Shown: one piece after another, positions 12,621 through 63,977 of the stretch | Layout of the letters: every line of letters starts with the position of its first letter | How positions within the stretch are numbered: position 1 is the stretch's first letter | Assembly: GCA_018816705.1 (NCBI GenBank) | Contig: JAHIVG010000079.1 | Coordinates: forward strand, 8,064 to 72,063 | DNA: 64,000 nt | Reading direction: 5' to 3' | Source of the DNA: Nanobdellota archaeon | GTDB taxonomy: Archaea > Nanobdellota > Nanobdellia > Woesearchaeales > JAHIVG01 | Made by a program: the position numbers and the translations under genes | Notes under the pieces: model-generated | What the model was told of the DNA's origin: nothing | What the model saw: the letters and a program-made list of their open reading frames with translations, nothing else | The model's database searches: none

Positions 12621-12726
12621 TCAATGAACATTCAGGCCTGACGACACCTTTTTAACGATTACCATTCTATAATGATACTAAAAGTTTTAATAGACTGTAA
12701 CTGTTGATTCACCTGGTGGTGAGGGA

Positions 12727-19003: not shown

Positions 19004-19093
19004 GAATTACCACTGAATAGGGGTATTTAAAGCTTTCGGTATGATTGGCTCTGTCCTGAGTGTCAATTTGCCTTCCTCGCTTGCAGGCAGATT

Positions 19094-19179
19094 CTCTTTT
19101 CCCGCCCTGCCACGCAAAGTGAGCAAAGCTCACTTGCGCCCAAGACTCCGTCTTTGGGGGGCGAGGCGGGAAAAGAGAG
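19094..19179. repeat. Hairpin repeat element, family X, copy A
   Basis: The outer stem ctcttttcccgcc / ggcgggaaaagag encloses the inner hairpin aAGTGAGC-aaa-GCTCACTt, followed by conserved caagactccgtctt. It is closely similar to 56804-56890. Confidence 0.6.
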
Positions 19180-19253
19180 CAAGCAACATTCAGCGCGACC
19201 GAGTCGCCAGACTTAGGACAGAGCCGGTTGTATATATAAACGCTTATCTGCCG

Positions 19254-19373
19254 GCCGCGTAGAAATCCTGGTTCTTTTTGATCCTCGCGAAAGTCAACAT
19301 GGTCACGCTCATATAAAAATCAGTCGCGTAACCGGATCAAAAAGAATCTCATTCTATCGGATTTCTACGCGGC
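19254..19373. repeat. Inverted-repeat element, family Y, copy A
   Basis: A perfect 15-bp terminal inverted repeat GCCGCGTAGAAATCC / GGATTTCTACGCGGC. An inner inverted repeat TGGTTCTTTTTGATCC / GGATCAAAAAGAA. A related copy lies at 47966-48096. Confidence 0.6.
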
Positions 19374-20765
19374 CTATCTGCCCAGAAGGGTATCCCTCTT
19401 CTGATAGCAGGCATCGACGAAGGATGCTAGCTTGGGCATCATCTGCGGCTCGGGAGCGTCTGAGAATGCCAGGTCAACATACGGCAGTATCTTGTCAGCA
19501 GCTGAGCCAGCCCTCTCGCGTGCGTTCCTAATCAATGCTTGAGATACAGACGTGGCAACAGTCTCATGCATGCACTGCCAGGGCCCGACATGGCATATGC
19601 CGCTGATTGCGGCATCGCCCACAGGCCGGAAATGGCCCTCGATGAAGAGGTAAGTCGTGCCGACAGTGATCGGAGACTCACCCTCAATGGCGGTGTGGAA
19701 TATGCCTCGGTCCTCGGCTTTCTTCGAATAGTCGTAAGCGTCATGTATCTCCCTGCCCCTGAGAAGATCCTCGAAAGGCATCCAGAGAATGTCCTTCTGC
19801 TTGTTCATGTACCATCTATTGATACCCTTCTTGAAAACATCAATCAGCGAGGACGGATGCCTAAGGCTCATGGCCTGCTTCGCATCCTGGTAGTTCCAGC
19901 TGTTGACATAAAGGAACCATTCGGCTGTGGATGCGACAAGTGTCTCCAAAGGCCTGCTGAAAGAGCCCTCCAACAGCTTAGAGATATAGTGGTTGGCTCC
20001 CGGATGGAGCCTCATGAAGAATTCGCCGTTCACAAGAGCTATCGGGAACCGTCGGGAGCGGTCAAAGTCCACCTTTGACATCTCGGCAGCAGCAGTGTAC
20101 ATCGCGTCCTCAAGGCCGTGGCCGCCAGACCTGATCTCATCGCACAGATGACCGAGAAGCTCCTTGTACTTGAGCTCTCCGGCCGTGTTCCCGACTTCAG
20201 GCTTTTTCTCGTAAGGCCTGATCCTCAGCAGGGCATTATATAATATGTCCAGGGCGAAGATGCTCTTGAAAGCCAGCTTGACAAGATCGTCTCTCTGATC
20301 AGGAGGCAGGTCCAACTCAGAATAGTTGGTCTTGCCAGAAGGGCTGACAATAGGCACCCCCTCATACCCGTTGCTGTCGAGGATGAGCCTCATAACCTGT
20401 GTGTACTGCCCCTGCCTGCACGGACCCTCGGCAGTGGGCTGGAACAAGGCAAGCTCGTCCTGGCCATGCTTCTCTGATTTCTTCTCCAGCCAGGCCAGGG
20501 CATCACCTATCAGGATGCGGAAGGGCTCGCAGGTCTGGGTTATGACATTCTTCTCCGCAAGCCCGTAAGTGTGCTCGGTGCAGGTCTCTTCCATGACCTC
20601 AGCAGGGATGCCGACACCTTGCAAAGCGGCTGCAAGGCCGTAAGAGCTGTCACCTGAGTAAGGTATGCCCCACGTGCGCTCGTTGAGGTTGTCAGGCATA
20701 GGCCTTGAAGTGTCATACTTCTTATCGAGCCGCGCCTGCAAGCCGGATGAGTCTTCGGGTTTCAT
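19374..20765 (-). CDS. 2-hydroxyacyl-CoA dehydratase-like (HgdB/DUF2229-type) protein, partner of the upstream ATPase fusion
   Basis: 463 aa. It overlaps the upstream gene by 4 nt. In clostridial 'CoA-substrate-specific enzyme activase' proteins this domain is fused to the ATPase modules. Confidence 0.65.
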   Translation of the reverse strand: MKPEDSSGLQARLDKKYDTSRPMPDNLNERTWGIPYSGDSSYGLAAALQGVGIPAEVMEETCTEHTYGLAEKNVITQTCEPFRILIGDALAWLEKKSEKHGQDELALFQPTAEGPCRQGQYTQVMRLILDSNGYEGVPIVSPSGKTNYSELDLPPDQRDDLVKLAFKSIFALDILYNALLRIRPYEKKPEVGNTAGELKYKELLGHLCDEIRSGGHGLEDAMYTAAAEMSKVDFDRSRRFPIALVNGEFFMRLHPGANHYISKLLEGSFSRPLETLVASTAEWFLYVNSWNYQDAKQAMSLRHPSSLIDVFKKGINRWYMNKQKDILWMPFEDLLRGREIHDAYDYSKKAEDRGIFHTAIEGESPITVGTTYLFIEGHFRPVGDAAISGICHVGPWQCMHETVATSVSQALIRNARERAGSAADKILPYVDLAFSDAPEPQMMPKLASFVDACYQKRDTLLGR

Positions 20766-29828: not shown

Positions 29829-30407
29829 TCATTCCTTAATAAAGTACCACGACGGGAAATCCTTCTCCTTGGTGATGTAGAGCCTCTGCTCATGTTTCTT
29901 CGAGAACTCGTCCACAGCACTCTTCACTCCGAACAGGCCTTCAGGGAGCTTGCCGTCCACATAATCGTGCCCGGCGAAAAGCCCGCCCTTCCTGAGCTTG
30001 GGCCACCACTGCCCCATATCCCCCTTACAGCCCTCGTAGGTGTGATTGGCATCGATGTAGATGAAATCAAGGCTGTCATCCTCAAAGCGCTTGATGGCTT
30101 CCTGGGAGAGCGTCCTCAGGATTTTGCTCCTCCTGCCGAACATCATCAGCTTCAGCCGGGTGCGCAAGTAGGCGATGTGGTGCCTGTGTTGGGGCAGGTT
30201 TGATATGTCATCATAGTCCTTCTTCTTGAAGGCCTTCCAGGAGTCGATAGAGTACAACCGGCTCAGGCTTGAGCCTGCCAGGAGCCTCTCTGAGTAGAAA
30301 CCGCTCTGCACGCCGATCTCAACGCCCTTCCCGGTCAGGCCGAGCCTCTTTGCCAGGGCAGGCAGCCCGTCCCGGTGTGTTATCTGCAAATCCATGGCAA
30401 GCGGCAA
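29829..30407 (-). CDS. Class I SAM-dependent methyltransferase (TylF/MycF-like O-methyltransferase fold)
   Basis: GVEIGVQSG... and DFIYIDANHTYEG...GHDY motifs. Confidence 0.65.
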   Translation of the reverse strand: MPLAMDLQITHRDGLPALAKRLGLTGKGVEIGVQSGFYSERLLAGSSLSRLYSIDSWKAFKKKDYDDISNLPQHRHHIAYLRTRLKLMMFGRRSKILRTLSQEAIKRFEDDSLDFIYIDANHTYEGCKGDMGQWWPKLRKGGLFAGHDYVDGKLPEGLFGVKSAVDEFSKKHEQRLYITKEKDFPSWYFIKE

Positions 30408-30464
30408 TCTTTGTCCGTATAAATAACTGTCGCTTTGAGAGGGTAATGTTATAATTATAATCTC

Positions 30465-30633
30465 GGCAACAACAATACTGGCAGCGCGACGGTCAAATGC
30501 GACGCATTTGCTCTACTCGTCAGACCGGAACCCAGAACTTCGTAACTGGCACAGTCACTACCTACGGTCGTTCGGCGGTCAAATAAGAGATTTAACAACC
30601 CGGTCTGCCTCGCCGCGCGCCATTGTTGTTGCC
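30465..30633. ncRNA. Candidate structured RNA / conserved hairpin element, family Z, copy 1
   Basis: Closing stem ggcaacaacaat (30465-30476) / attgttgttgcc (30622-30633). Nested hairpins caaatgcg-a-cgcatttg and cagaccgg...ccggtctg. A second copy with compensatory changes lies at 60613-60716 on the opposite strand. The transcribed strand is unknown. Confidence 0.4.
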
Positions 30634-30684
30634 TACTAGCTAGGTGCCATAAGCCTTATAAACAACTGTTGATTTTTACCAGGA

Positions 30685-32508
30685 ATGGAACCAGAAAACA
30701 CTCACAAGATGGTGCCGGACACTTCTGTATTGGTCGATGCCGCGGTATCAAAGAAGATAAGCAAGGGCGATATCGCCCCGGAAGAGATCATCATCCACGA
30801 AGCGGTCATCGCAGAGCTGGAGCACATGGCCAATGAGAACAAGGCCATAGGCTTCTTAGGCCTGGACGAGATCGGAAGGATAAAGGAGCTCTCAGAAGAG
30901 AAAGGCTTCAAGATACGCTTCGGCGGCAGGAGACCGACGCTGAGAGAGGTCAGGGAATCATCCTTAGGTGAGATAGACGCCCTGATACGCGACCTCGCCT
31001 TCGACGAGAGCGCAACACTGATCACAGCAGACAAGGTCCAGGCAAAGGTGGCCAAGACAAAGGGCATCCCCGTACTGTTCATCGAGCAAAGCCAGACAAA
31101 GAAGAAGCTGGAGCTGGACAAATACTTCGACAAGACCACGATGTCAGTGCACCTCAGGGAGAACGTGCCCCCATACGCGAAGAAAGGCGTTCCGGGCAGC
31201 TGGCAGTTCGTCAAGGTAAAAGATGATTTGCTCAAGCAGGAAGAGATACAGGACATATCCAGGGAGATAATCGAGGAAGCCGGTCACCGCCGTGACGGAT
31301 TCATAGAGATAGAACGGCCAGGCAGCACGATCGCCCAGTTAGGAAGCTATAGGATAACCATCACAAGGCCGCCGTTCAGCGACGGATGGGAGATAACGGC
31401 TGTGAGGCCGGTCAAGAGGATGGGACTCAGCGATTACAAGCTGAGCGAGAAATTGCAGGCAAGGATAAGCGAACAGGCAGAGGGAGTGCTGATAGCAGGC
31501 TCTCCAGGGCACGGCAAGAGCACATTCGCCCAGGCGCTCGCAGAGTTCTACGCATCGAAAGGGAGGATTGTCAAGACGATCGAGGCCCCGAGAGACCTGG
31601 TGCTGCCGGAGACAATCACCCAGTATGCGATAAGCCACGGCACGCAGGAAGAGATACACGACATACTGCTGCTCTGCAGGCCAGACTACACCCTGTTCGA
31701 CGAGATGCGCAACACGAACGATTTCAGGCTCTTTGCAGACCTCAGGCTGTCAGGCATAGGCCTGGCAGGTGTGGTGCACGCGACGAATCCCATCGACGCG
31801 ATCCAGAGGTTCGTCGGCAGGATCGAGCTCGGCGTGATACCCCAAGTGATAGACACTGTGATATTCATAAAGAATGGGGCAGTGGACAAGGTCCTGGCCC
31901 TGAAAATGATGGTCAAGGTACCGTCAGGCATGACAGAAGCCGATCTCGCAAGGCCGGTAGTCGTCGTGAACGACTTTGAGACCGACCGCCTGGAGTTCGA
32001 GCTGTACAGCTACGGTGAAGAGACCGTCGTCGTCCCAGTGGGAAAAGATGAAGGGGCTAGCAGCCCAGCAAAGACACTGGCCTCAAAGACAATCGCGGAT
32101 GAACTGCACAAGCACGTGGAGCACGTCGAGGTCGAGATGGTCAGCGACCACAAATGCATAGTACGGGTGCCGGAGCACAGGATAGCCAAGATAATCGGCC
32201 GTGGCGGAGAGAACATAACACAGCTTGAGAGGAAGCTCGGCATAAGGATAGACGTGCAGCCCCTGGAGGAAGAGAAGGGCGGGCAGACAGTGCAGCCCGT
32301 CGAGACAAATGTATCGAAGAAATTCATCCTCTTCAACCTGGGAGGCAAGTACAGCAACCGGGACGTGCACATATTCATCGACAACGACTTTGTGCTCACG
32401 GCCAAGGCAGGCAAGACAGGGCTGATAAGGATCAAGCGCAACAACAAGATGGGGCAAGTCCTCACAGAAGCCATCAACACGAAAGAAAGGCTGGAGTTCA
32501 GGCTGTAA
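30685..32508 (+). CDS. PIN-domain / PilT-type ATPase / KH-domain protein (PINA-like)
   Basis: N-terminal PIN domain, central ATPase with Walker A GSPGHGKST, C-terminal KH domain (IAKIIGRGGENITQLERKLG). Confidence 0.75.
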   Translation: MEPENTHKMVPDTSVLVDAAVSKKISKGDIAPEEIIIHEAVIAELEHMANENKAIGFLGLDEIGRIKELSEEKGFKIRFGGRRPTLREVRESSLGEIDALIRDLAFDESATLITADKVQAKVAKTKGIPVLFIEQSQTKKKLELDKYFDKTTMSVHLRENVPPYAKKGVPGSWQFVKVKDDLLKQEEIQDISREIIEEAGHRRDGFIEIERPGSTIAQLGSYRITITRPPFSDGWEITAVRPVKRMGLSDYKLSEKLQARISEQAEGVLIAGSPGHGKSTFAQALAEFYASKGRIVKTIEAPRDLVLPETITQYAISHGTQEEIHDILLLCRPDYTLFDEMRNTNDFRLFADLRLSGIGLAGVVHATNPIDAIQRFVGRIELGVIPQVIDTVIFIKNGAVDKVLALKMMVKVPSGMTEADLARPVVVVNDFETDRLEFELYSYGEETVVVPVGKDEGASSPAKTLASKTIADELHKHVEHVEVEMVSDHKCIVRVPEHRIAKIIGRGGENITQLERKLGIRIDVQPLEEEKGGQTVQPVETNVSKKFILFNLGGKYSNRDVHIFIDNDFVLTAKAGKTGLIRIKRNNKMGQVLTEAINTKERLEFRL

Positions 32509-44751: not shown

Positions 44752-45213
44752 TTATTCCACTAATATCTCACTCATATTTATCTTAGCAGAATAACATGTA
44801 GGGGAACATCCCTTGCCATTAGGCTGGAACTTCCTATATGAGAGTGGATAGTCATCAAGCTCGTAAATAATTACTGATTCTTCGTCTTGGCAAGATTCTC
44901 TATTCTTGATGGTGAATGATAATCCTTTAGGTTTATCTTTGATATCAGAGCCGCCAAGATCAAATGAAATCAGGTTGTAATCAACAGTTCTGAGCACGTG
45001 AATGTTCTGGCTTTGTTGATCAGCACATCCGTCATAGCTACCCAAGCTTGAATCAATCATCAACTTCTCAGGCAATCTTTCAGGAAATAATATTGAAATC
45101 TGATCTGAGCAGCCTATATCAGTACACATTAGAGGCGGATCGAATGAATCACAGGCACTTAAAGAGATTGTTATAAAGAGTAAAATTGAGTAAAAAGTGA
45201 TCTTTCTTTTCAT
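44752..45213 (-). CDS. Hypothetical secreted/lipoprotein-like protein
   Basis: Signal with a lipobox-like LSAC; AT-rich and Cys-rich. Confidence 0.35.
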   Translation of the reverse strand: MKRKITFYSILLFITISLSACDSFDPPLMCTDIGCSDQISILFPERLPEKLMIDSSLGSYDGCADQQSQNIHVLRTVDYNLISFDLGGSDIKDKPKGLSFTIKNRESCQDEESVIIYELDDYPLSYRKFQPNGKGCSPTCYSAKINMSEILVE

Positions 45214-47764: not shown

Positions 47765-47965
47765 ATCAACCAGGGGAGGTGAAGGGTTTATATATTTTTC
47801 TTCGGTAGTCTAGGTTCAAGAGCCTCGGCCCGCACAATACTCTTCAAGTGTATATGGCCCCTTTTACTGTCCTCCCGAGCCCCCACCCCCATACAGTCCG
47901 CCTCTGAGGCCGACAAGTTGAGGCAGTCGTGTCGAGCCTTCATCACTTGGCCGGCAAGAAAAACC

Positions 47966-48096
47966 GGCTTAGTAGAAAGTCTGGTTCTTTTTGATCCTTT
48001 ACCATAAGAACAGATAGTTATCTGTCTAATCTAACATAGACCTTAGTAATGGAAAGGATCAAAAAGAAATTTCCATTATCGACTTTTTACTAAGCC
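47966..48096. repeat. Inverted-repeat element, family Y, copy B
   Basis: ggcttagtagaaagtc-tggttctttttgatcc ... ggatcaaaaagaa-atttccattatc-gactttttactaagcc. The ~58-nt spacer contains the palindrome CAGATAgtTATCTG. Confidence 0.55.
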
Positions 48097-48121
48097 TGAA
48101 AAACCGAAACATACTCATTTC

Positions 48122-48227
48122 ATCCGTAGCTTCGATTTCTTGAAGAAATCGAAACATTTAAACAGCGAAAACCTGCGGTTTTTGGGTTTAAATGTCCCGA
48201 AAATGGAACATTTTCGAAACATTTAAA
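48122..48227. promoter_or_regulatory. Operator-like palindromes and direct repeats upstream of the wHTH regulator/ABC operon
   Basis: A perfect 21-bp palindrome TCGATTTCTTGAAGAAATCGA (48122-48142). The palindrome CGAAAATGgaaCATTTTCG (48198-48216). The direct repeat TCGAAACATTTAAA, twice. Confidence 0.45.
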
Positions 48228-48266
48228 TACTTCAAAATTCACTAAATTTATAAAATTGTAAAAATT

Positions 48267-48758
48267 GTGAAGATGGTAAAGATGCAGGCATTCGAAAAGG
48301 AATTCATCGACTTCTTCGTAGGTGTGTTCAGGGGCTTCGGCATGGACTCATTGAGCGCGAAACTGGTAGCCATACTATACATGGAGCCGGAAGAGGTCTC
48401 CATGGAGGATTTGGCGAAGAAGACCGGCTACTGCCTGGCCTCTGTCTCGAACAAGCTGCGCTTCCTGGAGAGCGTGGGGCAGATACAGCGCAGGAAACAC
48501 CCGGGCACCAAGAAGGTGTATTATTACATGCACAAGGACATAGCGAGGGTGCTGAAAGGGAAACTGGAGAAGAGCAGGCAGTCATGCATAGGGCCCATGA
48601 AAGAGGTCCTGCCCCGCATCATAGGGAAATACAGGAACGCGAAGATGGGCCCTAAGGAGAAGGCGAAGATGGCCATAATCAACGACTATTACCGGCAGGT
48701 CACCAAGATCGAGAAGATGATGGAGAAGATGATGGACTATCTGGAGAACCTATCATGA
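48267..48758 (+). CDS. Winged-helix transcriptional regulator (MarR/GbsR-like)
   Basis: HTH region MEDLAKKTGYCLASVSNKLRFLE; first gene of the ABC operon. Confidence 0.5.
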   Translation: MKMVKMQAFEKEFIDFFVGVFRGFGMDSLSAKLVAILYMEPEEVSMEDLAKKTGYCLASVSNKLRFLESVGQIQRRKHPGTKKVYYYMHKDIARVLKGKLEKSRQSCIGPMKEVLPRIIGKYRNAKMGPKEKAKMAIINDYYRQVTKIEKMMEKMMDYLENLS

Positions 48759-56619: not shown

Positions 56620-56803
56620 ACCGGTCGCTTATCATTTCTATTATACATGTCCCCTCGTTGACCATCCAGACCCCCACTCTCTAAAACTGGTACTTTGGCC
56701 CCGTTTCGCTTCACCACCACTTCCCCCACCCCCATGTAAGTTGCCTTAGAAATTTAATCCAAACAATATCCTTTTTCGTTCCTTTACAGGTCGCTGCCCT
56801 CAC

Positions 56804-56890
56804 TCTTTTTTCCCCGCCTCGGCACACAGAGTGAGCGAAGCTCACTTGTGCGCAAGACTCCGTCTTAGCGCGCGGGGCGGAGGAAAAAAG
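56804..56890. repeat. Hairpin repeat element, family X, copy B
   Basis: ctcttttttccccgcc...AGTGAGC-gaa-GCTCACTtgtgcgcaagactccgtctt...ggcggaggaaaaaag. It shows compensatory differences from copy A. Confidence 0.6.
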
Positions 56891-56984
56891 ACCCGACATC
56901 AGTTGGGCGCGACCTGGAGGAGGCTATTTCATCAGAGTCCGCTGGAGCAAAAGATATTTAAACACACGAATCTGATGAGGTGGC

Positions 56985-57332: not shown

Positions 57333-57734
57333 ATGAAATTCAAGTTTTTCGACCACACTGCGGACATCAAGTTCCAAGCCTACGGAAGCAGTAAGGAAGA
57401 GGCTTTCAAGAACGCAGCCCTCGCCCTGACAGAGTTTATCATAGAAGAAGATATCAAAGCAGTGCAGGAGAAGACCATAGAAGTGGAAGGGATGGATGAG
57501 AAGCAGCTGCTGTACAGCTGGCTTGAACAGTTCCTCATCCTGCTGGACACGGAAGGTTTCCTGCTCTCAACAATAGAAGAGCTCAAGATAGACGGCAATA
57601 AGCTCAAGGCCAAGGTCAAAGGAGACTCGGCCGAGAACTACAAGCTCACAGGAGACGCGAAGGCAATAACGTATCATGACATGGAGATAACCCATGATGA
57701 CGGATGGATGGTTCAGGTGGTGATTGACATATGA
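57333..57734 (+). CDS. Archease
   Basis: Start MKFKFFDHTADIKFQAYG. It is encoded immediately upstream of rtcB with a 4-nt overlap. Confidence 0.9.
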   Translation: MKFKFFDHTADIKFQAYGSSKEEAFKNAALALTEFIIEEDIKAVQEKTIEVEGMDEKQLLYSWLEQFLILLDTEGFLLSTIEELKIDGNKLKAKVKGDSAENYKLTGDAKAITYHDMEITHDDGWMVQVVIDI

Positions 57735-59143
57735 AAATGATCTCAGAGAATGTATGGGAGATCCCCAGAGAAGGCAAGATGAGAGTCCCAGCACGGATAT
57801 TCGCATCAGACATACTCATGGAGAAGATAAAGGCAGACAAGTCCTTGCTGCAGGTCAAGAATGTTGCGGCACTGCCAGGCATCCAGAAATTCTCATTGGC
57901 CATGCCGGACGCGCACCAAGGATACGGATTCAGCATCGGCGGGGTAGCCGCATTCGACATGGATGAAGGCATAATCTCACCTGGCGGAGTCGGCTACGAC
58001 ATAAACTGCTCTGTACGGCTCTTGAGGACAGACATGATGGAGGATGACATCTCATCCAAGAGGAAACAGCTGCTGGAGGAGCTATCAAAAGAGGTGCCGG
58101 CAGGAGTCGGGCGGAGCTCCAAGATGAGGCTGTCAAGGGAAGAACTGGACGAAGTGCTCTCGACCGGGGCCAAGTGGGCAGTGAAGAAAGGCTATGGAAC
58201 AGTAAAGGACCTGAAGCACATCGAAGAAGGAGGAAGCATGCAAGGCAGACCGGACAAGGTCTCCGACCTTGCCAAGAAACGAGGCATGCCCCAAATAGGC
58301 ACGCTCGGAGCCGGAAACCACTTCCTCGAGATGCAGAAAGTCGACAAGATATTCATGCCAGAGGTAGCAGAGAGGTTCGGTATCACCAAGCCAGGACAGG
58401 TCATGGTCATGATACACTGCGGTTCTAGGGGGTTGGGCCACCAGGTGGCATCAGACTACATCAGGGCCATGGAGAACAAGTTCGGTATCTCCCATCTTCC
58501 TGACAGGGAGCTAATCAACGCCCCGATAAGCTCAGAGCTTGGCCAGGACTACTATCACGCCATGTCTGCTGCAGCGAACTTCGGCTTCGCCAACAAGCAG
58601 ATGATAACCCACTGGGTAAGACAGTGCTTCGACAAGGTCTTCGGCAGCAACGAGAACATGGACACAGTGTATGAGGTCTGCCACAACATCGCCAAGATGG
58701 AACAGCACATGATTGATGGCGAAAAGAAGAAGCTCTGCGTGCACCGCAAGGGAGCCACAAGATCATTCGGCCCGGGAAAGGAAGAGGTGCCCGAAGACTA
58801 TCGGGATCTGGGACAGCCAGTCATAATCCCAGGCAGCATGGGCACTGCATCATATTTATTGGTGGGCACGAAGAAAGCCGAAGAGATATCTTTCGGGTCG
58901 ACTGCACACGGAGCCGGGCGGGTCGCGTCCCGTTCTGAGGCTCTTCGGACAGTAAGGGGCGAGCAGGTCAAGAAAGAGCTCAAACAGAAAGGCATAGAAG
59001 TGTGGGGGCACTCATCCAAAGGCCTGGCAGAGGAAGCACCCCAGTTCTACAAGGACGTGGACGAGGTCGTCCGCGTGTCTGACGCATTAGGCATAGGAAA
59101 GATGGTGGCGAGAGTAGTTCCGTTAGCGGTGTTGAAGGGCTAA
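57731..59143 (+). CDS. rtcB: tRNA-splicing ligase RtcB
   Basis: Metal ligands and the catalytic His region (GAGNHFLE, HCGSRGLGHQV, TAHGAGR). Confidence 0.95.
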   Translation: MKMISENVWEIPREGKMRVPARIFASDILMEKIKADKSLLQVKNVAALPGIQKFSLAMPDAHQGYGFSIGGVAAFDMDEGIISPGGVGYDINCSVRLLRTDMMEDDISSKRKQLLEELSKEVPAGVGRSSKMRLSREELDEVLSTGAKWAVKKGYGTVKDLKHIEEGGSMQGRPDKVSDLAKKRGMPQIGTLGAGNHFLEMQKVDKIFMPEVAERFGITKPGQVMVMIHCGSRGLGHQVASDYIRAMENKFGISHLPDRELINAPISSELGQDYYHAMSAAANFGFANKQMITHWVRQCFDKVFGSNENMDTVYEVCHNIAKMEQHMIDGEKKKLCVHRKGATRSFGPGKEEVPEDYRDLGQPVIIPGSMGTASYLLVGTKKAEEISFGSTAHGAGRVASRSEALRTVRGEQVKKELKQKGIEVWGHSSKGLAEEAPQFYKDVDEVVRVSDALGIGKMVARVVPLAVLKG

Positions 59144-59718: not shown

Positions 59719-60315
59719 ATTGATTATCTTCCCCTGCTTGCCGACGTTGATGACCCTGGTCTTGCCGATCTTTTCCTCTAATCCTTCAGCCTCATGCACG
59801 TGAGAGCAGAGCAGGATGTCCGGCTTGAAGGTGTCGATGGCCTTCCTTATCCCCTTGCTGCCGGGGATGAATGTCGAGAACTTCTCCATGGTGCTGTCAG
59901 AAGGATGTACATGCGTGACCATGATCTTCTTCTTCACGCCCTTGAGATGCTTGTAGCCATCCTGGAGCACCTTGAAAAGCTCCTCCTCTGACAATTGGAA
60001 CAGGCCGATGTTGGCTCCGCCTGCACCGAAGAAGCCGATGTCCTTGTACCTTATCGAGTAGCCGTGCAGGTTTGTAGCGCCGTAGACCTCTGCGAGGAAA
60101 TCTGTCGTGGCAAAGGTCTCATGGTTGCCGGGTATTATGACCACTTTCTTGCCGAGCTTGACGAAAGGGCCTATTATGCCTTGAGGGTTCTCATCTGATT
60201 CGACGATGTCTCCAGTGAGGATGACCAGGTCTACATTCTCCTTCTTGGCCCTCTCAGCCAGCTTCTTCGCAAGGCCGCGGTCGCCGTGCAGGTCTCCCGA
60301 TGCGAGGATTTTCAT
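59713..60315 (-). CDS. Metallophosphoesterase (YfcE/MJ0936-like)
   Basis: DLHGD, GDIV, GNHE and HVH motifs. Confidence 0.8.
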   Translation of the reverse strand: MKILASGDLHGDRGLAKKLAERAKKENVDLVILTGDIVESDENPQGIIGPFVKLGKKVVIIPGNHETFATTDFLAEVYGATNLHGYSIRYKDIGFFGAGGANIGLFQLSEEELFKVLQDGYKHLKGVKKKIMVTHVHPSDSTMEKFSTFIPGSKGIRKAIDTFKPDILLCSHVHEAEGLEEKIGKTRVINVGKQGKIINL

Positions 60316-60345
60316 TTTATTAAACCCAATTTATATTGAAAGATA

Positions 60346-60436
60346 GGCAGCAACCGAGAATTGAACTCGGTCCTGGAGCTCACTGCAGCAACATGCCGCC
60401 ACAGGCTCCCATGCTAACCATTACACCATTGCCGCC
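60346..60436 (-). tRNA. tRNA-His(GTG) with an anticodon-loop intron and an encoded G-1
   Basis: Minus-strand fold:
- G-1, then acceptor GCGGCAA / TTGCTGC with one G-U pair.
- Anticodon stem GGAGC/GCTCC around loop CTGTGG|A (anticodon GTG), with an ~18-nt insert.
- T arm CCGAG-TTCAATT-CTCGG, and discriminator C.
- A TATA-like ctttataag lies ~30 nt upstream. Confidence 0.6.
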
Positions 60437-60612
60437 ACAAGGGAAAGTATTGGCTTTCTGCTTATAAAGGTTACCAAAACAGAAGTAAGAAAATTGTTAT
60501 AATACTGAAAATCCAGCCACCCATGGCACGGACGGCCTCTTCCTGCGGAAGAGTCCTATTCGGCTTCGGCTACGCCTTGCCTCATCCGGCCTTGGCTGGA
60601 TTTTCGGAACTC

Positions 60613-60716
60613 GGTAACAACATTGGCGCGCGGCGAGGCGGGGGATGCCCATCCGGGGTGCCGAGTAGGACAAATTGGTACAATTTGGCCGTCGCGCTGC
60701 CAGTAATGTTGTTACC
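60613..60716. ncRNA. Candidate structured RNA / conserved hairpin element, family Z, copy 2 (opposite orientation)
   Basis: Closing stem ggtaacaacatt / aatgttgttacc. Inner hairpin caaattg-ta-caatttg. The conserved cctcgccgcgcgcc block is present. Confidence 0.4.
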
Positions 60717-60735
60717 TAACTAAGAAATTATTTAA

Positions 60736-61215
60736 TTAATTCTCAAACCAATACCTGACCATGTAAGGCAGGAGGAAGCCCACCACGAAGAGCATGGCGG
60801 GGATCAGGGCATTCTGTGGCTGGACGAAAGGGAGGAACTGCCTAAGCCAGTTGGAAAGCACGCCGACGAGCGAGAGCTTCACCACAGCCAACAGAGGAAG
60901 CACGATAAGGGCGATAGCATGATGCCTCCGGCTGAGGTGCTGCATGCCGAACACTACATGCTCGAAGACGAAGCCGAACACCAGACCGACGAACAGCATC
61001 ACAATAGAGACAAGGAGGGGTGGGGTTATGAGCATGACCGGCAAGAAGAATACGGAGATCAAGAGGATGAACACGGCGAGGATAAAGAAAGTCAGCCAAA
61101 ACCAGGTTATCTCCTGGCTGCGGTGCTTTTTCTTGTACTTGGAGATTATCTTCTCGGTGTGATCAATCTCTTTCTGGGTCCAACCCTTATCATGAAGCCT
61201 TTTCATCCATACCAA
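60736..61215 (-). CDS. Hypothetical membrane protein
   Basis: 159 aa with 4 TM segments. Confidence 0.4.
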   Translation of the reverse strand: MVWMKRLHDKGWTQKEIDHTEKIISKYKKKHRSQEITWFWLTFFILAVFILLISVFFLPVMLITPPLLVSIVMLFVGLVFGFVFEHVVFGMQHLSRRHHAIALIVLPLLAVVKLSLVGVLSNWLRQFLPFVQPQNALIPAMLFVVGFLLPYMVRYWFEN

Positions 61216-63695: not shown

Positions 63696-63977
63696 TGTGG
63701 GGAGTGCATAAGCCATCTTCTGTATTCTGCAACATTCGACTAAGCGCTTAAAGCTTGCACCGGCCAGGGCTCGCCGTTTCACCGCCATCTGGGGAACGTC
63801 TGCTGCGCAGCCCAGTCGCCTAGGTGTGCTGGAGCGTCATCCTTGGCCCAGAAGCGTTCGTTTCTGTGCGGTTGCCTCCCCTTTCGAGGACCCGTAGGGT
63901 GGCCTTTCGCGGTGGATGGACTTTCCTCAGCTACCAGGCTTCTCAGCCCGGTTACCGGCAGTTGCATGCACCCCCAC
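63696..63977 (-). ncRNA. rnpB: RNase P RNA
   Basis: The minus strand carries: P1 GTGGGGGTGC...GCACtCCCCAC; P4 5' strand GAGGAAAGTCC; ACAGAAA; GGCGGTGAAACGGCG (the CR-IV-like GGTGAAA); and ACAGAAGATGGCTTAT (the CR-V-like ...GGCUUA). A TATA TTTAAATA lies ~25 nt upstream. Confidence 0.75.

Follow-up and report, generated by a model that had tools for sequence, protein, structure and literature searches.

Three intergenic elements from the genome of a DPANN archaeon (labelled Nanoarchaeota or Woesearchaeota) constitute a family that, on the evidence of its base pairs, is under clear selection to fold. The elements are called Z1, Z2 and X here, and they lie in one stretch of 64,000 nucleotides, referred to below as the window, which belongs to a metagenomic contig of 79 kb. 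The explanation that we prefer, with a probability of roughly 0.45, is that the three are paralogues of a lineage-restricted small structured RNA, each with a TATA-like box of its own. To our knowledge, almost no non-coding RNAs beyond the universal ones have been described for DPANN archaea, which have tiny genomes, and a three-member family with so much compensatory change can with good reason be regarded as a candidate for a new RNA family. Coordinates of the elements, their parts and other features are compiled in Table 1.

Table 1. Positions of the three elements, their parts and further features of the window
Feature	Position	Strand	Remarks
Z1, full element	30465-30633	+	169 nt
Z1 P1 arms	30465-30476 / 30622-30633	+	
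Z1 ACT bulge	30477-30479	+	
Z1 P2 arms	30480-30492 / 30610-30621	+	
Z1 hairpin A	30494-30510	+	
Z1 junction CTCTACTC	30511-30518	+	
Z1 variable B domain	30519-30609	+	
Z2, full element	60613-60716	-	104 nt
Z2 P1 arms	60716-60705 / 60624-60613	-	
Z2 hairpin A	60687-60671	-	
Z2 B domain		-	short, about 24 nt
X, third, diverged member	60508-60604	+	97 nt; covariance-model match and fold
X P1 arms AAAATCCAGCCA/TGGCTGGATTTT	60508-60519 / 60593-60604	+	extendable to 60505-60607
X 5-nt bulge, then 'GGCA' of the conserved TGGCA motif	60525-60528	+	
X hairpin A, CTCTTCC-TGC-GGAAGAG	60537-60553	+	
X junction TCCTATTC	60554-60561	+	
TGTTATAAT, TATA-like box	30447-30455	+	9 nt upstream of Z1 P1
TGTTATAAT, TATA-like box	60495-60503	+	4 nt upstream of X P1
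TTAAATAAT, AT box	60727-60735	-	10 nt upstream of Z2 P1; 6/9 identical to TGTTATAAT
Promoter-like module TATAAATAACTGTCGCTT...ATG	30415-30448	+	upstream of Z1
W1 and W2 (family W)	19253-19374 and 47966-48097		
Family Y, two copies	19047-19225 and about 56790-56925		
RtcB and archease genes	57333-59143		
tRNA-His, anticodon GUG	60346-60435	-	intron about 18-21 nt; Rfam tRNA model
Archaeal RNase P RNA	63700-63975	-	155.9 bits

The initial annotation had described a nested-hairpin element in two copies on opposite strands, each closed by a 12-bp stem, and both copies were found where it had placed them, with the stems ggcaacaacaat/attgttgttgcc (equal to GGCAACAACAAT/ATTGTTGTTGCC) in Z1 and ggtaacaacatt/aatgttgttacc (equal to GGTAACAACATT/AATGTTGTTACC) in Z2. 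The blocks said to be identical in the two copies, ctggcagcgcgacgg and cctcgccgcgcgcc (equal to CTGGCAGCGCGACGG and CCTCGCCGCGCGCC), match exactly and, with no mismatches allowed, are unique to Z1 and Z2 within the window, and the internal surplus of Z1 over Z2, given as about 70 nt, measures 65 nt. The inner hairpin (hairpin A) covaries as claimed; it consists, however, of 7 bp and a 3-nt loop instead of 8 bp and a 1-nt loop, namely CAAATGC-GAC-GCATTTG in Z1 and CAAATTG-TAC-CAATTTG in Z2. The copy number of two had to be corrected, because the diverged member X had been overlooked.

In the predicted folds of Z1 and Z2 the element has the shape of a rod, composed of the closing helix P1, a 3-nt bulge and a second helix P2, which opens into a three-way junction. 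P2 is an 11-bp helix that arises from the mutual pairing of the two identical blocks, and it runs in both copies through GGC/GCC, a bulged A, GCGCG/CGCGC, an A.C mismatch and CGG/UCG with a G.U pair. Common to the two copies are the 12-bp closing stem, this invariant bulged GC helix, the 7-bp hairpin with its 3-nt loop and the junction strand CTACTCG. The eight helix substitutions that separate Z1 from Z2 make up four compensatory pairs, and none of the 33 pairs has changed on one side only; in the alignment of the two copies, 98.5% of the cells of these 33 pairs are paired, compared with 31-50% when the partners are slid. The folding energy z-scores of Z1 and Z2 are -3.7 to -4.7 relative to shuffled controls on either strand.

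The proposal that this fold is maintained by compensatory change is strengthened by the third member. With X included, 16 of the 33 pairs have changed on both sides and still none on one side only, 97.9% of the cells are paired (39-46% with slid partners), and none of 500 shuffles reached the three-copy covariation values. It should be noted that the alignment of the three sequences was made by hand, with N as gap padding, and was fitted to the structure, so that these counts lean towards the structure, which is a point against an RNA. RNAalifold, applied to the three-copy alignment as an independent folding check, again found the helices P1 and P2 as well as hairpin A and counted 18 compensated pairs, in agreement with selection on pairing. 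Sequence is conserved in the bulges, in P2 and in the junction strands, while the P1 termini and hairpin A are alike in structure only; conservation is lowest at the termini, with only 3 of 12 P1 positions common to X and Z. This pattern of conservation is that of a structured RNA, and it is the opposite of that of an end recognized by a transposase.

The discovery of X is independent of the hand-fitted alignment, because the covariance model that led to it was built from two sequences, Z1 (with the variable arm trimmed) and Z2, X being excluded. In a search of 95 kb this model matched positions 60509-60603 (+) over its full length with 39 bits (E 4e-7), a score above all matches in 613 kb of unrelated control loci, which had been chosen for carrying a Z block and yielded 22.6 bits at best. 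X follows the plan of Z, with a 12-bp P1, a 5-nt bulge, TGGCA, a shorter P2, ACGG and a hairpin of 7 bp with a 3-nt loop, and the sequences of its P1 and of its hairpin are unrelated to those of Z. Its junction strand is TCCTATTCG (YYCTACTCG in Z), its B arm is short and closed by GGC/GCC, and as a whole it is much more diverged than Z1 and Z2 are from each other. Examined as a further copy in which the pairing might be broken, X was found to retain it. X and Z2 lie tail-to-tail, 8 nt apart, with X between the tRNA gene and Z2; an open reading frame of 66 codons that spans both (60523-60723) looks spurious.

If the family encodes RNA, the RNA strand would be '+' for Z1 and X and '-' for Z2. 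In the fold of each copy the closing helix (P1) has 12 bp, the sequence of which is arbitrary, and is followed by a bulge of 3-5 nt and by the almost invariant, asymmetric P2 (GGC / bulged A / 3-5 bp / A.C or A-U / CGG with the conserved G.U), which leads into a three-way junction with the 7-bp/3-nt-loop hairpin, a conserved strand of 8 nt (YCCUAYUC) and an arm that varies from 18 to 90 nt. The functional surface would then be the invariant bulged helix together with the junction nucleotides, most simply a platform for a protein, and in P1 and hairpin A pairing alone would be required. The family would have spread within the genome by duplication, each copy carrying a TATA-like box just upstream. 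The conservation of bulges, P2 and junction in sequence, and of the termini in structure only, argues for such an RNA, as does the composition of the P1 arms: in every copy, read on the strands just named, the 5' arm is rich in A and the 3' arm in U.

The fold and the covariation of the proposed structured non-coding RNA were upheld; its RNA nature was not, since both strands fold equally well, the G.U pairs are not asymmetric and no terminator was found. P1 and hairpin A contain no G.U among 57 pairs, either orientation of P2 shows a single wobble site and a single mismatch site so that P2, too, does not distinguish the strands, and the folding energies on the opposite strand are similar or better. 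A scan for intrinsic terminators of the bacterial-type consensus (GC-rich stem plus T run) found none in 30380-30720 or 60300-60780, and no oligo-T terminator was found after Z1, Z2 or X, which likewise speaks against an RNA.

The sequences upstream of the elements argue in its favour. On both strands of the window together there are only two exact matches to the 9-mer TGTTATAAT, and these lie 4-9 nt upstream of X and Z1 and on the same strand as the elements; in the case of Z2, the related box overlaps with the region around the stop codon of the membrane-protein ORF. Promoters of this genome have A/T boxes about 29-33 nt upstream of start codons. Among about 40 genes inspected, TATA-like boxes (TTTAWA / TTATAA, often with AAA before them) stand 29-33 nt ahead of most starts, and because of this spacing the mRNAs of the organism would seem to be largely leaderless. 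Together with this promoter type, the boxes favour the view that the elements may be small transcription units. When the features of a small-RNA gene are considered, a TATA-like box is present with each copy, yet the start expected from its position falls within the element: at the usual distance from the proximal AT box, transcription would begin at the invariant TGGCA, past the 5' arm of P1, and therefore the covarying P1 could not form in the RNA, which is one of the arguments against the preferred explanation. A distal box that would include P1 is present for Z1 (the PINA-like module) and for X (the palindromic TATA box of the tRNA), and not for Z2.

The module upstream of Z1 is identical, in register, at 23 of 34 positions to the stretch from promoter through ATG of the PINA gene (30654-30687), and a transcript of Z1 could have a distal start there. 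It suggests either a duplicated promoter or a footprint of the arrival of the Z1 segment. The reading of a 22-nt direct repeat around Z1 as a target duplication was rejected; a shared promoter module fits better, and AACTGTTGATT recurs at other promoters. This 11-mer has exactly three copies (12699-12709 (+), 30664-30674 (+) and 44979-44989 (-); about 0.03 expected, by estimate), two of which have a TATA box on one side and a start codon on the other; the motif may therefore serve as a common operator or initiator.

The initial annotation had been unable to assign the element to a known RNA class, and the scan with Rfam 15 agrees. The models had no match on Z1, Z2 or X, neither in the whole window at the gathering score and at E<=5 nor in 30400-30700 and 60300-60760 at E<=10, the only matches being an RNase P RNA and one tRNA, both away from the elements. 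A tRNA or tRNA-like identity was rejected, because ARAGORN reported no tRNA in the whole window and the Rfam tRNA model matched only at the tRNA-His gene. An archaeal bulge-helix-bulge consists of two 3-nt bulges on opposite strands with a 4-bp helix between them; here a bulge of 3-5 nt and then one of 1 nt are both on the 5' strand, and the 3' strand is continuous. The junction strands (1 nt, YCCUAYUC and 0 nt) do not include the GAA strand of a hammerhead in any copy, and the hammerhead-like CUGACGAG is present on the reverse strand of Z1 only and absent from Z2 and X. Box C/D and H/ACA guide RNAs were dismissed for lack of the boxes (RUGAUGA and CUGA, or ACA) and of tandem G.A after the 3-nt bulge on either strand, a retron RNA because no reverse transcriptase is nearby, and permuted tRNA, SRP RNA, 5S rRNA and k-turn were considered and rejected. 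Like three-way-junction RNAs of Rfam such as 5S rRNA, hammerhead and purine-type riboswitches, Z has a closing helix, two hairpins and conserved unpaired junction nucleotides; however, its junction strands of 1 / 8 / 0 nt and their sequences fit none of these, and its closing rod comprises about 23 bp.

As far as seen, the family is restricted to its lineage. In large collections, which were scanned with exact patterns, TGGCAGCGCGACGG N15-30 CTACTCG had only chance matches in 596 Gb of GTDB species genomes, and the same was true of GGCAGCGCGACGGNCAAAT in the JGI metagenomes; the 31 + 67 genome and metagenome matches lay mostly in GC-rich DNA, and none had the 3' block or CTACTCG. Two scans of IMG/VR and blastn searches of phage and plasmid collections gave no match. 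The nearest PINA relatives have protein identities of 67% or less. Five of the relatives retain the PINA-SerRS-Cdc6 neighbourhood, and a covariance model of all three members had no match in 78 kb of their syntenic loci. The genome-wide homology check thus disclosed no copy outside this genome among the collections and relatives searched, and an additional 5.4 kb of the same genome contained no further copy. The sequence is 99.98-100% identical in independent assemblies of this strain, which therefore carry no information on polymorphism. Because the family was undetected in the loci of the five relatives and in the large collections, it is not a conserved housekeeping RNA, and this absence weighs against an RNA in general. 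In one relative, GCA_043806015.1, a DDE_3-domain transposase and an HTH protein are encoded at positions 4-959, at a contig end near the PINA locus; the pair is presumably IS630-like.

The main rival, which is ranked second and which we regard as rather doubtful, is that the elements are selfish non-autonomous hairpin repeats (MITE-, REP- or REPIN-like), copied as a folded single strand or via inverted ends, the hairpin being kept for mobilization. It would explain several of the observations that are awkward for an RNA, namely the equal folding of both strands, stems almost devoid of G.U, and the 3-nt loops; these loops and the precise dispersal of the unit are features that palindromic repeats of DNA typically show as well. 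Such repeats would also be consistent with dispersal boundaries exactly at the P1 ends, beyond which homology between the flanks of the copies is not significant, with the position of Z2, which would have inserted at a distance of 8 nt from X and inverted relative to it, with the spacer upstream of the PINA gene, which is 25-120 nt long in the relatives and 289 nt here, and with the restriction of the family to this genome. The extra domain of Z1 resembles a partial repeat of the element's own 5' half (p about 0.04), which again points to a repeat and away from an RNA. The shared motifs are ACTGGCA and CGRCGGTCAAAT, found again within 30520-30606, and the arm may be a decayed internal duplication.

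A further argument for a selfish repeat is family W, which is present in the same window and has the same layout: the outer stem is variable but complementary (16 bp, with five pairs doubly changed from one copy to the other), the inner stem (TGGTTCTTTTTGATCC/GGATCAAAAAGAA) is invariant, and the centres are unrelated. Perfect direct repeats of 8 bp, TATCTGCC and GAAAAACC, border its two copies, so that W is an insertion element of the MITE type; W1 adjoins the stop codon of the gene at 19374-20765. Because an insertion element shows the same pattern, covariation of the closing stem alone is no proof of an RNA function, and this is a caution for genome scans, as terminal-stem covariation by itself does not separate RNA genes from hairpin repeats.

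Nevertheless, target-site duplications of the MITE type, for which the elements were checked at offsets from -3 to +5, were not found: Z1 has none, Z2 only the 4-mer AACT and X a 3-mer, whereas W, the positive control of the scan, has clean duplications (8-9 bp at both copies). The termini, which in an element of this kind should serve recognition, are the least conserved part, so that no single transposase could recognize the ends of both Z and X. A MITE defined by shared termini was rejected on the same ground, since the termini are inverted within each copy, yet X differs from Z in 9 of 12 P1 pairs, and ends of the IS200/IS605 type were rejected because the flanking tetranucleotides differ. 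In addition, the conserved internal hairpin and junction would not be needed by a terminal-repeat element, the specific upstream TGTTATAAT box travels with the unit, and the roughly 70 kb of genome that were read contain three copies and no transposase or other mobilizing enzyme.

The comparison with known repeats leads to a similarly divided picture. Like MITEs such as W, Z is about 100-170 nt long, non-coding and dispersed between genes, and in both a long hairpin is closed by the inverted termini, the sub-terminal helix is invariant and the centre varies; unlike W, it lacks a target-site duplication, the termini of Z and X are unrelated, and the internal hairpin and the junction strand are conserved. 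REP, BIME and REPIN sequences are intergenic hairpin repeats without target duplications, often with inverted neighbours (as X and Z2), and their hairpins are kept by compensatory change, as in Z. However, REPs are units of 20-40 nt with conserved sequence, tens to hundreds of copies and a dedicated RAYT transposase, whereas the members of the present family are 97-169 nt long and branched, with three copies known and no such enzyme seen.

The family is a new one of a known general kind. It is unlikely that it is more than this, that is, either an undescribed class of archaeal structured RNA with a three-way junction as its conserved core (catalytic, or the nucleator of a DPANN-specific RNP) or the first structure-recognized, duplication-free hairpin mobile element with a promoter box in DPANN archaea.

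The genomic context was confirmed as originally described. Z1 lies between a divergent methyltransferase gene and a gene for a PIN-KH (PINA-type) ATPase, which is downstream of Z1 and has its own TATA box, and Z2 lies between the tRNA-His gene, which contains an intron, and a membrane-protein ORF, X and Z2 both being upstream of the tRNA gene. All three copies are intergenic and located in a core chromosomal region, which carries genes for MCM, TBP, pyrimidine biosynthesis, SerRS, Cdc6, SecDF, RtcB/archease and RNase P RNA; no transposase, integrase or reverse transcriptase was found in the window, and this setting favours an RNA. A 17-nt repeat around X and Z2 was dismissed as within chance.

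The same positions could be taken to indicate a cis-acting hairpin at gene boundaries, a 3'-end former or stabilizer or an insulator, acting as RNA or as a DNA cruciform, an explanation that is ranked third and appears quite improbable. The membrane-protein ORF, which is on the strand of Z2, has its stop codon 19 nt before the start of Z2, X and Z2 stand tail-to-tail between transcription units, the 3' arms of P1 are U-rich with X terminating in TTTT, and a function on both strands would account for the missing G.U pairs. However, Z1 lies between divergent genes, where there is nothing to terminate, the terminator scan was empty, and the conserved three-way junction, the bulged helix and the upstream AT box would be superfluous for a simple terminator.

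It is highly improbable that the elements are recombination sites of folded single-stranded DNA, like integron attC or forked-hairpin attachment sites of phages: with attC they share conservation of structure over sequence, bulged (extrahelical) bases, a distal part of variable length and a scale of 57-141 nt, and the ends of Z (GGYAAC...GTTRCC) contain the AAC/GTT triplets characteristic of attC, but X has neither triplet, the R-box consensus (RYYYAAC / GTTRRRY) and the GTTRRRY core are unmatched, and the copies are isolated, in mixed orientation among housekeeping genes, without a cassette array and without an integrase in the window.

The initial annotation had called family Z the strongest candidate for a structured non-coding RNA in the window; such a rank cannot be assigned to Z relative to family Y. 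The two copies of Y show about 80% similarity over a core that extends from CTTGCAGG to GCGCGACC; in each, a stem of 14 bp closes a three-way junction that bears two triloop hairpins, and the first copy is nested inside a further stem of 15 bp; a comparison of Y with Rfam gave no match.

Two other regions of the window deserve mention. The 508-nt AT-rich intergenic region at 47765-48272 holds W2 and several palindromes (e.g. 48187-48227); it could be a replication origin or an insertion hotspot. The tRNA-His gene scored 47.6 bits in the Rfam E-value scans (gathering score 29) and was absent from the first whole-window listing at the gathering threshold; a decamer, UGUGGCGGCA, occurs twice, once across the four bases before the gene and its 5' end and once in the anticodon/intron region.
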